A stretch of 64,000 nucleotides of DNA from Amoebidium appalachense (Eukaryota > Protista > Ichthyosporea). Positions 20,761 to 56,311 of this stretch are shown piece after piece. The notes below the pieces were generated by a model. The model was not told the DNA's origin, did not search any database, and saw only the letters and a list, made by a program, of their open reading frames with translations. The stretch lies in contig CAVNZM010000003.1 in the NCBI GenBank assembly GCA_963693365.1, positions 344,851 to 408,850 on the forward strand. The letters run 5' to 3'. The position numbers were made by a program, and so were the translations under genes. The first letter of the stretch is position 1. Every line of letters begins with the position of its first letter.

Positions 20761-21381
20761 CCTCTCTATCCATCGCTCTCGGGGCTCAGGATCCCTCCCC
20801 TTTCCTCAGGTAGAGTAGTCTTTCTCTCTCCATATCTAGTCTCCCAGTAGTCTCACACGTAAACAAGCTATACTTATCACAAAACATCTATAGTGAACAC
20901 CCTCCTTATCCCCCTCCTCACCCCGTTCCCAACAGTATATGATAACAACGCACAGCTCCTAAATATTTTTTCTCATCTCTTGAGGTGTGCCACGGGACGT
21001 GGTGGAATGTATTCAGGATTTATTTATGAGCCATGACCCAATCAAATGTTTTACGTGCAAACCACATATAGCTATATTTTGATTTTCAAATAAACGCGAC
21101 CAATCACGTCGATCTTCTTTGAGCCACCTGCCAGCAGTGCGCCTGATGTCACACCCGGCGTCCCGGACTCGCGGCCTTGATTAAGGGATACGGGATCGGC
21201 GATTTTGAGTGGTCCCCGATTTCTTTCTGGCGCCGCCTTTTTTCCCCCTGATTACGTAACGCGTTGCTACGCACCCACACCGTACAACGAGTTTTGTGTT
21301 CGCACGTTAACGCAGAGGGCGCACAACCCGAAAGAATTTTTTTCATGAAAAGAAACTACTTTGAATACATGCACTTTTACC

Positions 21382-22471
21382 ATGGGTGTGCAGGGCTTGC
21401 TCCCAGCACTCGGCATTAGTGCCGAAAAAGCCACAGATGTTACTGCAGAGTTGCAACGTGGGGTAGTTGCTTTTGACGGGATGGTGCAGGTCCACAAGTC
21501 CTTTTCAGTTTTCGCTGACACAGTAGCCAAACAGCAAATAGATGACAAAAAAGTCACAGACGACACATATGCAGCTATTGCAAATCACTTTATGTCCAAA
21601 GTTAATACGTATAGGCTAGCAGGGGTCCAGCCACACTATGTGTTTGATGGGCGCAGATTGAAAGAGGGAAAACTAGTTGATAACGACCGTGCAGAAAAGG
21701 TGGTCAAAGCCCGCCAAGAAATAGCCACAAAAAGAGAGAAACAGGAGGAAGTAACTAAAAACAAATGGAGAAGCGCTGCAGAGTTAGATAACAGAGTTTT
21801 ACATGCAATCATCCTTAGACTGAAAGATGAGAATGTCGATTACACAGTAGCTCCATACGAAGCAGACCCCCAGCTTGCCTATGATGGCACGTACCGGTTT
21901 GGCACACACTGTTGTCACTGAGGATGCCGACCTTCTTCTGTATAACATCCCGCGGGTTGTATACAAACTGCGCATTGCGGATGCGGCGGTCATCCCTGGG
22001 ACCGCTAATGCGGTGCGCATTCCCAAACTGTACGGAGTGATTGTAACCCCCGCCGATGTTTTTACCAGAAGCACAAAGTACAACTTCGACGGATGGGATA
22101 TAGAAATACTGCGTTATTTTGCTATTGTGAATGGCTGTGATTATGTGAAAAAGCTCAGGGGAATTGGCATGGGCACTTTGCACGCAGCTGTAAGTGAGGC
22201 GTGCCGGGCCTGGGGACGCGAGGGAAGGCCGGTAGCTGCGGGGGTTGTGTTCACAGATCTGCTCCAGCATATCCAACGGGTCAGAAAGGGGAAAAGAGGG
22301 AAGGAAAAGCCCGTTAAAAGCACAGAAAACAAGCAGGGTGGGGACGAACGGGCAGGAAGAGTCGAAATCGGACGGAAAGGAGGTGAAGCAGTGGAGGAAG
22401 AGGTTGAGTGGTGGGATCTTGAATACGAACATGGAACGTATGAAAACGGGGCTGAGGTGATGAGGTTATAG
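21382..22471 (+). pseudogene. Exo1/XPG (FEN1-superfamily PIN + H3TH) 5' nuclease, intronless, frameshifted at ~21883
   Basis: MGVQGLLPAL start, VAFDG, HYVFDG..K, VAPYEADPQLAY, then after one extra base MARTGLAHTVVTEDADLLLY, AIVNGCDY, LRGIG. All canonical acidic catalytic motifs of Exo1/FEN1/XPG are present. The C-terminus degrades after ~22460. Confidence 0.85.
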
Positions 22472-22773
22472 AGATGCAATGATGAGGGTGAAGAGGTTAT
22501 AGAGATGCAATATGCAGATGGTACGAAAAAGAGGCGGATAGTAGGACCAAGTGTAGAAGAATTGGCCCAATCATGTAGTACAAGCCTGACCTTGTAGGGC
22601 TCCGTGCATTTGTACAGCAAATAGACCCTACTGGACACAAGTATAGTTTTACCTGGAATGAAAAGTTTATGGTGCAAATGTATCCATCATACAGGGCAGA
22701 AAACCACAAAAAGTGGAAGAAGAAGAAGTGAACACGAACACTGAAAATGCAACTGAATGATTCTGTTTTCCTT

Positions 22774-22806
<33 letters not shown>

Positions 22807-22833
22807 TTTACGTTATCTTTCATAATGTGTACT

Positions 22834-22889
<56 letters not shown>

Positions 22890-23136
22890 GTGATCTTCTG
22901 ACCGATCTAGTGAACCTATAATGAATGAATGAAGACCGTGTGTCAAATCTGAGAGCAATGTACCAGACCCTGGTGCCTGCATATGTTTCCTACCCCCCCC
23001 CCCCCCCTCCCCCCGGTCCCTCCTCCCCCCTTGGTGTTTGCATACGTGCCTACCTGCCCCCCCCCCCCCCCCACACACACACACACACGTGTGTGTGTGG
23101 GGGGGGGGGGGGCGTGCATGCGTGCGTGTGTGCAAA

Positions 23137-23171
<35 letters not shown>

Positions 23172-23362
23172 TTCCGTGTGTGCGTGGTTGTGTGTGTGTG
23201 TGAAGGGGGGGGAGGGGGGGGGGGGGGGGGGGGGAGAACGACTCAAGGTTGTACTTGGCACACAAATACATAATAATTTCAATTATTATTATTATTTTCC
23301 TATACAGGAAAAGTGGAGCCCTACTGGCCGAATACATACATGCAAGCATTCATTCATATTTT

Positions 23363-23445
<83 letters not shown>

Positions 23446-23488
23446 CAGAGAAGGGGGCTTTAGGGAGAGGCAATCGAAAACGAAAATT

Positions 23489-24325
23489 CTACACCATGCT
23501 TTTGGTGTGCCCGGGCCCCACCATATCCTTATATAGTGGCTCTTGCATGTTACACAAGAAAGCCACAGCCTTAGCTACCATCCAATGGGTGCCTACCATC
23601 GACATCTGCACCTGATTGCTAAACAGCCGATAATTTTTCATGCGCCCAAAAGCCCTCTCACTGCTCGTCTCCCCCCGCTCCCTCGCTCGTTTCCGTGTTT
23701 GCTCATTATCTGAGGCATCCATTCCTACAGCTTGCATATGACTATTGGCCCTTTCCTCCCTCAATAGCTGTACCTTCTCTCTGTACATCGGGTCTAGTTC
23801 CATTCGGATGGGACATGCATCCTTTGTTAATTTCAGTTTTCCATTCTTAGCAGTAATATCATCATCGGTGAAATGTGCCTCGCATACAACCAGTTGCTTA
23901 AGGATAGCCAGTGGCCAGGGGACTTCCACCTTCGGTTGCCCCCGTTTCCTCTTTGGTTGTGGTTCTTGTGCCGACTACTCAGCTGGCACAGCCGAGTCAT
24001 TGGCATTTTCGGATTGTGTGTCAGCTGTGTGTGTCTCAGTAGTGGTTGTGTCTGTATTTACGTCTGTCCCATCCGAGGCCTTTGGCCTTGTGTCTGTGTG
24101 TGTGTCTGGGTCGGGGGGTGCTTGCTTTGTGTGTTCTGCTATTTGTTTCCGCTCATACTTTGTTTGCTCCTGCCTGCCTATAGCATTTAACCAAGCATGC
24201 CTCCTAGCCAATACATTTGGTTTGCATCCATATGGAACAGTAAAATGCTTTATCTTCCTGGTAGGATCTTTGGGAGAGACTGTTTCTTCGTCATTTTGGC
24301 AGTAGTTAGCCGCGCAAGTTGGCAT
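23489..24325 (-). pseudogene. THAP zinc finger fused to the C-terminal fragment of a Harbinger/ISL2EU-type (DDE_Tnp_4) transposase
   Basis: MPTCAANYC..HFTVP..RRHAWLNAIGR..[Thr-rich insert, in-frame TAG at 23975-23977]..VVCEAHFTDDD..KLTKDACP is the THAP C2CH pattern. ERAFGRMKNYRLF..AVAFLCNMQEPL matches the tail of DDE_Tnp_4 transposases. The two ORFs are in the same frame. The first two catalytic Asp regions are missing. Confidence 0.75.
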
Positions 24326-24748
24326 TGTGAGTGCCTAACATATATAGTTAGAAAACAACCCGCCTTCATGAAAAATGTGCAGCGCAGTTTTGTCCGGACA
24401 CGTGTGTGGCATGCCGTGTGTACATGGTATAGCTCGGCCACACGATCTTAGGTGCCCAATATGCAGATCAAGCCCACTCAATCCAGATAGATATCGATCT
24501 GAGCGGCGCCAGAAAGTATTCGAGCCGCGCGATCCCGTATCCCTTAATGTCACGGCTTAGCCCGCCTGTCGGATAGTCTAAAATGTATACCCCTGGTTTG
24601 TTTTTTTACGTCATGGCAAATTGCTTTATACTACAACCGTGCGTCATTTTGAAAAGACTATACATGTCAGCTGTTGTTTGTGTAAGGCTGCAAGTTCCGG
24701 TTTTTCGTGCCAGCAGTCCAGGAAAAAAAACACAGCCAAGCAAGCAAC

Positions 24749-25950
24749 ATGTTTCTCTCATCAGCCCTCCGCCCGTCCGTGTGTGCGCGCGCACTAGCCT
24801 CGTCCGCCGTGCGTGTGTGCACGCGCACACTCGCCACCGCCCTGGGGGGGAATCAACACCACCAAGTACCCCATTCACGACCCCAACTCTGCCGAACGCA
24901 AAGCCCTTGTAGAAAGATCTCGCAAAACACTTCTCGAGAAGGGAGTAGTCACCTTCCCCAACTTCATCACCCCGGAGGCTGTAAATTATTGTGCAACTGA
25001 AGCGTTCACAAAGGCACCACACGCGTACGCCACCGATGACACGCACAACGCGTACCTTCTACCTGGGGAGGATAAGTCACTCCCTGCGGACCACCCACGA
25101 AACATGCAGATGAGAACACGTGTTGCAAGCACCGCTTATGATGAGCTGGATACTCAGGGCACGCTGAGACAGCTGTATGATGGGCCCCACTTGGTGAGTT
25201 TTGTGGGAGATATTCTCGGAAAGAAGGATTTCTACCGTTTGGCGGATCCCCTGGGTGCATGTTCGGTCAACGTTTTCAGGCCTGGTAAGTGCATGTGCTT
25301 GATCATGTTTGAGGGTGTGTACTTGAATTGTTGTGTTTTTTCTGCTGTTAATGTGCTTCTCACCGCTCGTCTCCTTTTTCTCATTCTTCTACGTTCACGC
25401 GCTCTCCCTTCTCTCTGCCGTCTCTCCACATGATCTCTCTTCCTTTCTCCCTCCCCTCCCTCCCTCCCCGCTTCCCCCCATACACACACACACACACACA
25501 CACACAGTCTGTCTTCACCCCGGCCCACCACCCTCTTTTTCTCTCTTTCTGCCTGGCTTTCCGTCTCTCACCCCCTTTCTGTCTTTGCCCATCCCCTTCC
25601 CCCCCCCCCCCCCCCCCCCCCCCCCCTTATCCCCACACAACCCACCCACCCACCCACCCTCGCGGCCTACACCACCCCTCCTTACCTTTCAATGGTATCC
25701 TAAATTTGCTTTGGTTGGGATTATGGCCGTCAACAGAGGACCTACGGTGCATTCATGTTTTCCTTTCGGACGGAGAGGGGGGGGGGGGAGGGGGGGGGGA
25801 ACGGGGTCCAGATATGAATTACTGCAGAGATCATTCCCCCTTATTAGCACGACCCCATTCCACTTATAATTGACGTCCATCACTCTTACCTCCTCATCCC
25901 CTCTCCCCTTCTCCTTCCCCCCTCCCCCCCCCCCCCCCCCCCCCCCCCCC

Positions 25951-26000
<50 letters not shown>

Positions 26001-26319
26001 CTGGTACCACTCGTACCACTTTGACGAGACAGAGTTCACCACCACACTGTGCCTTCAGGCTGCCGAGGATGGGGGAGACTTTGAGTTTATCCCCCACCTG
26101 CGTACCTCCAACAAGGAATTTGTGGTGGATAAAGTTGAGGCGGCACTGAGGGGGGAGATAAAGCCACAGAAACTGGAGTTTGCCCCAGGTAATGGGTGTG
26201 TGTGTGGGGGGGGGGGGAGTATGGGTTTGGGTGGGTGGTTGTGTGGGAGGAGGGGGGGCAGGGGAAGTGTACCTGAATGCGTGTATGGGTGGGGAGGGGG
26301 GCCGGGTATGGGTGTGTGT

Positions 26320-32311: not shown

Positions 32312-40676
<8,365 letters not shown>

Positions 40677-44534: not shown

Positions 44535-56311
<11,777 letters not shown>

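Follow-up and report, generated by a model that had tools for sequence, protein, structure and literature searches.

A defective transposon copy in Amoebidium appalachense from a multi-copy family that pairs a THAP–DDE-type transposase with an EXO1-like nuclease

Results

Ends and gene layout of the element

The window analysed here, a 64-kb stretch of the Amoebidium appalachense genome, holds a defective transposon copy of 3,359 bp at positions 21185–24543. Its terminal inverted repeats (TIRs) are the 14-bp sequence GGGATACGGGATCG, which starts with GGG, at 21185–21198 on the forward strand and the reverse complement of the same sequence at 24530–24543 on the reverse strand; the two match perfectly and have no further copies within the window. 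TTAA lies directly outside both TIRs (21181–21184 and 24544–24547). The window has 149 TTAA sites, and among pairs of sites 60–20,000 bp apart, facing 14-mers with at most three mismatches were found at four, of which the pair at 21185/24543 alone has none. The symmetry of the ends extends outward by five further bases, ATTAA on the left (21180–21184) and TTAAT on the right (24544–24548), and both flanks are common to other copies; within them TTAA is the candidate target duplication, a duplication of AT or none at all also being readable.

Further inside, a 14-bp subterminal motif at 21223–21236 (forward strand) has an inverted partner at 24503–24516 (reverse strand), and these likely represent putative binding sites of the THAP-bearing transposase. 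An 11-bp motif likewise occurs on the nuclease side (21339–21349, forward strand; 33 bases upstream of the nuclease ATG) and on the transposase side (24365–24375, reverse strand; 40 bases upstream of the transposase ATG), and is a possible shared expression signal or may be due to chance. The nuclease gene on the forward strand and the transposase gene on the reverse strand converge, separated by a spacer (22732–23488) with many simple repeats that resembles host introns. The arrangement reported by an earlier sequence-only reading, two tail-to-tail open reading frames (ORFs) within TIRs and TTAA flanks, thus stands, with perfect 14-bp ends and TTAA adjoining both. Vinculin-like exons in the window are in keeping with a holozoan host, and the Amoebidium genome is described as consisting of transposable elements to about 50% (a section of PMC11244446).

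An intronless nuclease core of the EXO1 type

The nuclease core (21382–22471, forward strand; ATG at 21382) is free of introns and belongs to the XPG/FEN1 superfamily: it contains XPG_N (Pfam E 1.5e-5, above the cut-off), XPG_I (E 4.8e-5, just below the cut-off) and the GCDY motif of an H3TH-type hairpin. Equivalents of EXO1 residues D30, H36, D78, K85, R92, E150, D152, D171, D173 and D225 (alignment numbering) are kept, and we take their catalytic roles to be those of EXO1. All seven acidic active-site residues and the K85, R92 and H36 equivalents are therefore intact at approximately 29% identity to human EXO1, which bears out the description of the gene as an intronless Exo1/XPG-type nuclease with its catalytic motifs. 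The closest solved structures for both halves are those of human EXO1 (E 9e-9 and 4e-5; PDB 3qe9, 5v07 and others), FEN1 structures match far worse (E 0.004 or weaker), and matches in a structure and sequence atlas returned the XPG family and nothing beyond it. A probable distal tail (22478–22731, forward strand) provides 82 open codons up to a stop at 22729–22731 if five bases at 22574 are skipped; these five bases are missing from the contigs of three (X1, X2 and X5) of the four public sequencing runs that were compared with the window (X1, X2, X5 and X13).

A search of 1.84 billion protein representatives placed first among the best 150 matches listed a transcriptome product of Amoebidium parasiticum (P0010; 97% identity, 126 aa) with the same frameshift as this copy, and the remaining 149 were 27–41% identical. 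In a trimmed alignment the nuclease was 23–33% identical (median 29) to 192 EXO1-like rows, which had a median identity of 38% among themselves. Since, apart from the same-family P0010, the best 150 matches reach 27–41% identity, the nuclease is, judged by these identities, not a recent EXO1 retrocopy or processed copy. The finding that would have undone the earlier reading, a near-identical processed EXO1 present in this copy alone, was thus not made, the gene being, by contig depth, not restricted to this copy (see below).

A transposase remnant and its longer relatives

The transposase remnant (23489–24325, reverse strand; ATG at 24325) comprises a THAP finger, a coiled region and then the last DDE helix alone. 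The finger residues are C4, C9, C148 and H151, with a low-complexity insert splitting the finger, and Pfam recognizes THAP (E 7e-8, 33.6 bits versus a cut-off of 23.9) when the stop at 23977–23975 is read as Gln. DDE_Tnp_4 is matched by the C-terminal tail only, below the cut-off (E 3e-4), in agreement with the proposed combination of a THAP domain with the C-terminal helix of a DDE_Tnp_4 transposase. The profile comparison proposed earlier therefore yields XPG_N, XPG_I, THAP and a sub-cut-off DDE_Tnp_4 tail, and no Pfam match to YqaJ in the second ORF up to E 1. No SWIM finger is visible in this copy, and the remnant had no match among longer proteins or plasmids.

Contigs of run X2 depart from the window at 23658/23659 on both sides, for at least 255 bases, and the 30-base overhangs, read by eye, continue as an open frame on either side. 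One of them ends in R-x-H-V-E at the catalytic Glu that the window copy retains (by eye, over 30 bases), and an R(3)E spacing of this kind is the motif given for PHIS transposases in a section of PMC4122938. From this two-sided divergence into open frame it follows that longer family copies exist, continuing into the DDE motif that is absent here, and that the DDE core of this copy was, as the junction reads, removed by a deletion at 23658/23659 that kept the frame and has 2 bp of microhomology. Intron loss was rejected as the source of the gap: the missing part does not begin with GT and is coding on both sides.

Lesions of the window copy

The nuclease frame is shifted by a single additional base at 21883. 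X1, X2 and X5 lack this base in their main contigs, and X13 and P0010 have it, so that an assembly error was rejected as its source. The transposase stop at 23977–23975 is CAG in all four runs compared. At 22456–22511 (forward strand) a 25-nt duplication with 31-bp spacing marks a rearrangement junction, and at 22478 a copy in X13 is connected to different sequence of at least 255 bases; the nuclease gene is thus also internally deleted or rearranged near 22455–22478. Together with the deletion of the DDE core, the frameshift, the stop and this rearrangement confirm that the copy is defective. In X13 the frameshifted nuclease is itself amplified, and P0010 is a transcript of it, so that an inactive nuclease can travel with the element.

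A young family that carries the nuclease in most copies

The stretch or part of it occurs in 20 of the 24 runs listed, and at least half of its words in 16; no RNA run is among the listed runs that contain it. In X1 the contig depth was 979 over the nuclease and 959 over the transposase, relative to 30–37 over the flanks (approximately 33 times the left flank), and this equality places the nuclease in the bulk of family copies. The element stood at approximately 64 times the left flank in X2 and 9 times in X5, values that are contig depths rather than copy numbers; the left flank was uncovered in X13. In X1 and X2, contigs run from either flank into the element, and an X5 contig skips it, showing the locus to be empty in that isolate. 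Among the loose ends listed, at least five other terminal flanks were found: at the left end two positions in X2 and one in X13 (loose ends at 21173, 21178 and 21180), and at the right end two in X13 (loose ends behind 24548 and 24549). The window differs from the main contigs of X1 by one change in 900 bases and by five in 864, indicating that this multi-copy family is young. Equal depth of nuclease and transposase, the other flanks and the empty locus agree with the earlier notion of a transposon family rather than a one-off capture, and we are highly confident that the nuclease gene belongs, family-wide, to a PHIS-type element as a gene of its own.

Readings of the target site

ATTAA or TTAAT was read on each of the seven flank sides observed, and in X5 the family contig stops at the final T of TTAAT (24548). 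Somewhat better than an even chance is given to a duplication of TTAA within A|TTAA|T, with ends starting GGG and one TTAA at the empty site. A duplication of AT, for which the ends would begin TAAGGG as in a 2-bp duplication of the ISL2EU type, is rather unlikely, and a blunt, Spy-like insertion without duplication, with the empty site TTAATTAA, slightly more so; a 3-bp duplication is contradicted by the difference between the left TAA and the right TTA. The search for empty TTAA sites suggested by the sequence-only reading succeeded in part: the empty X5 allele does have one TTAA, but it lacks 11–16 flank bases, is approximately 5% diverged and carries other indels, and is therefore not decisive for the duplication, no clean empty site having been found.

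The same pairing in an unrelated contig

EXO1-like genes beside or fused to transposases were sought by an EXO1 motif scan of metagenome contigs (45 of 64 parts covered; best 80 of 387 confirmed) and of genome contigs (two loci). Most of the 80 metagenome loci look like ordinary EXO1. Their 710 ORFs showed no DDE-type motif beside EXO1 (regular expressions and tblastn), and 20 of the 97 neighbouring ORFs, scanned with Pfam, contained no transposase; at three divergent loci (L012, L078 and L082) the contigs stop before any partner gene position. Among the 82 loci a transposase was found at one, L081. This contig of 5.5 kb is assigned to a bacterial metagenome-assembled genome, in which it is likely a eukaryotic contamination. 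A single frame of about 1,514 codons here joins XPG_N and XPG_I to DDE_Tnp_4 (E 8.5e-27), and its C terminus aligns with that of the window transposase (27% over 45 aa; pairwise E 0.003). The proposed linkage thus recurs, as a fusion, in a different organism. THAP-like and SWIM-like motifs were seen, by eye only, between the EXO1-like and DDE_Tnp_4 parts. No TIRs are visible on the 5.5-kb contig, and the only DDE_Tnp_4 match in the L081 genome is L081 itself.

In the protein P0005, an EXO1-like core precedes motifs resembling SAP and SWIM (by eye; Pfam gives no support). Pfam scans of 68 of the 156 protein matches listed no THAP, DDE_Tnp_4 or SWIM among their families, and a fusion profile search of proteins of 1,435–4,095 aa returned one XPG match. 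The N-terminal half of the nuclease alone had no match in viral or metagenome contigs, nor did the EXO1 alignments, P0005 or the DDE region of L081 match viral contigs.

Nuclease trees, which are unrooted, have long branches and were built without FEN1, GEN1 or XPG, grouped the window nuclease with L081, P0005 and divergent rows under LG+G4 (43 rows, P0086 included; support 95/94, from a bootstrap not fully settled). A C20 mixture on 26 rows recovered the same split (96/92), with four other long-branch EXO1s outside the divergent group, and forcing the window nuclease together with three fungal-type EXO1s was rejected (p-AU 0.004; 22 rows); the divergent group minus the window row gave p 0.45 in the AU test. 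Seven of the nine rows of that group were picked after a first tree, the window nuclease is 27–30% identical to it versus a median of 29% to ordinary EXO1, and the split, being unrooted, may merely separate ordinary EXO1 from all fast-evolving rows. A common origin of transposon-borne EXO1-like nucleases is plausible from these trees.

Discussion

A possible role for the nuclease in transposition

The explanation that we favour, and hold to be moderately likely as a whole, is that the element is a defective copy of a young, ISL2EU-like THAP–DDE family whose EXO1-like 5' nuclease likely aids transposition. That the nuclease serves transposition is probable; that it does so specifically by cutting a 5' strand or 5' flap is given slightly less than an even chance. 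DDE systems free the 5' strand by hairpinning, by a second hydrolysis or through a partner nuclease such as TnsA of Tn7. EXO1/FEN1-fold enzymes cut 5' flaps and nicks, and such a fold would thus suit the 5'-strand step. In the proposed sequence of events, longer copies would supply the THAP–DDE transposase in trans, which would bind the ends, nick the 3' (transferred) strands and join them to a target of the ATTAAT type; what still ties the element to donor DNA, the non-transferred 5' strand or a 5' flap, would be left for the nuclease to cut. TnsA does the equivalent job in Tn7, and the unrelated YqaJ exonuclease may do so in animal ISL2EU elements. The L081 fusion, as predicted from its single frame, suits a nuclease acting inside the transpososome.

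A broader and more tentative version proposes a sister lineage of ISL2EU that is ancient and spread across eukaryotes, with an EXO1-derived 5' nuclease as an obligate second catalytic subunit of the transpososome, encoded separately here and fused in L081. This would be a eukaryotic cut-and-paste system with two nucleases, in the manner of Tn7, and in this host possibly the first PHIS group to duplicate 4 bp, TTAA. Alternatively, the nuclease could act after excision, resecting the donor break in the 5' to 3' direction and promoting homologous gap repair from the sister chromatid, by which copy number would rise. Long-range resection is the host job of EXO1, to which the nuclease is nearer than to FEN1, and the copy bears two internal deletions of a kind typical of aborted gap repair, one of them accompanied by a templated duplication; the flank bases missing from the empty X5 allele could be read in the same way, but given its divergence and other indels that gap need not be a footprint. 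The host, moreover, presumably already has resection enzymes, and the fusion of nuclease and transposase in L081 suits the transpososome instead, so that we regard a post-excision role as fairly unlikely.

More doubtful still is that an old EXO1-like gene, captured or viral, is carried passively without a role, as might be suggested by the amplified and transcribed frameshifted form and by the many endogenized viral and transposable-element genes of Amoebidium genomes (a section of PMC11244446). Against this, all catalytic residues are kept at approximately 70% divergence, the main contigs are in frame in three of the four runs, the same pairing is fused in the unrelated contig L081, and searches of viral contigs gave no relative.

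Under the favoured explanation, YqaJ and XPG/EXO1, two unrelated folds that are both 5'-directed, occupy one slot beside a like transposase, which suggests that a 5'-strand step is required there, a notion testable with a well-understood catalytic mutant. Since the family looks recently mobile and its host, an animal relative, is likely culturable, an active copy may be recoverable. The element also calls for caution with 'exonuclease 1' annotations that are multi-copy in protists, as these can be transposon genes.

Comparison with known systems

In Tn7, cleavage is divided between a DDE enzyme for the 3' strand and a second nuclease, TnsA, for the 5' strand; TnsA/TnsB are a model of function only, being bacterial and, for TnsA, of a restriction-enzyme fold, and no homology is claimed. 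Human EXO1 shares the XPG_N/XPG_I core and the catalytic residues, and differs at approximately 30% identity from the transposon nuclease, which is intronless, lies within TIRs and is multi-copy.

In the available sections of PMC9587614, Kolobok elements (KolobokE, KolobokD) have TTAA flanks, RR..YY ends and lineages set by often-swapped accessory nucleases, a pattern that the TTAA flanks and GG..CC ends here would fit; their transposase is, however, of the hAT/P/MuDR type with C/DxxH, and the accessory nucleases described there are lambda-exo, DEDDh and His-Me, none XPG-fold. No clean empty site supports the flank likeness and the C/DxxH region is deleted in this copy, but the retained tail matches DDE_Tnp_4 and the DDE_Tnp_4 protein of L081, and the R(3)E spacing is that of PHIS transposases (a section of PMC4122938); a Kolobok rather than a PHIS origin is thus extremely improbable. 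PIF/Harbinger and Nuwa were set aside on the differing left TAA and right TTA and on a second ORF that encodes a nuclease, not Myb/SANT. Spy, the sister of ISL2EU with a strict palindromic A/T target, would be compatible with a blunt TAA|TTA insertion (sections of PMC4122938 and PMC11304231); membership was rejected, the parts describing Spy giving mostly a single ORF with an HTH and no THAP and an AAA|TTT target, against two ORFs, THAP and TAA/TTA flanks here.

An XPG, EXO1 or FEN1 nuclease in such an element was not found described in the full-text literature searched, ISL2EU together with XPG included, in line with the earlier statement that no described family is known to use a FEN1/Exo1-fold nuclease; supplements, Repbase or Dfam may hold the architecture. 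The available sections of PMC9179366, PMC12730594, PMC5718144 and PMC11304231 contain no such pairing, and the accessible parts of the literature yielded no statement on the job of the ISL2EU exonuclease.

The transposase appears to resemble ISL2EU best, and not Kolobok. As described in sections of PMC4482050, PMC4122938 and PMC9179366, ISL2EU elements likewise have two ORFs, one for a THAP-bearing DDE_Tnp_4-type transposase and one for an exonuclease, with short TIRs starting GG (PMC4482050) and an AT-rich palindromic target context. The THAP feature is present here once the stop is taken as Gln (the four runs all have CAG). Of the DDE_Tnp_4 core, the last helix (sub-cut-off, E 3e-4) and, in the 30-base overhang of longer copies, R(3)E were seen, but not the HTH or either Asp residue. 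The flanks differ, AAT/ATT there and ATTAA/TTAAT here: if the ends are taken to start with GG, the flanks are AA/TT and not the AT of A|AT|T, and AT fits only with ends starting TAAGGG. The host differs also, a unicellular holozoan as opposed to the 25 families of Han et al. 2015, all of them animal in the part describing them. Because YqaJ is absent and the duplication is no clear match, formal membership was rejected and the element is not filed as ISL2EU. What sets the element apart, as read from the predicted proteins, is an EXO1-type nuclease of the XPG fold in the second ORF, where the animal ISL2EU relatives carry an unrelated YqaJ nuclease of the PD-(D/E)xK type.

Nuclease genes possibly related to the window element

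An EXO1-like nuclease is fused to a DDE_Tnp_4 transposase in an intact 1,514-codon frame (L081:822-5366) on L081, a 5.5-kb contig that is filed under a Planctomycetota MAG and probably represents eukaryotic contamination of that genome record. Divergent EXO1-like genes on three further short contigs (L082:1960-3882, L012:247-2127 and L078:474-1292) share the L081 side of the unrooted tree, and L082, like L081, is filed under a bacterial MAG; these genes are probably additional TE-borne nucleases, with no partner visible on the short contigs.

Genomic context of the transposon

Sequencing run X5 contained another deletion form of the element's transposase gene, in which 516 bases are skipped (window 23627-24144). 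A gene with introns (24750-26160), which has the transposon carrying the EXO1-like nuclease (21185-24543) approximately 200-300 bp upstream, resembles by eye a 2-oxoglutarate/Fe(II) oxygenase; a Pfam scan of two of the gene's exons gave no match. Elsewhere in the window are a DnaJ gene exon encoding the central zinc-finger domain (39059-39649, minus strand) and vinculin-family exons (55060-56308; E values of 9e-8 and 2e-3, both under the cut-off), the latter being consistent with a holozoan host. Apparently placed inside an intron of the vinculin-like gene is a second TTAA-flanked element (54510-55082), whose 565-bp interior is CpG-rich (observed/expected ratio of 1.3) and contains no long ORF; with ends of the form CCCC..GGGG, paired at 14 of their first 16 bases, it looks like a piggyBac-type MITE.
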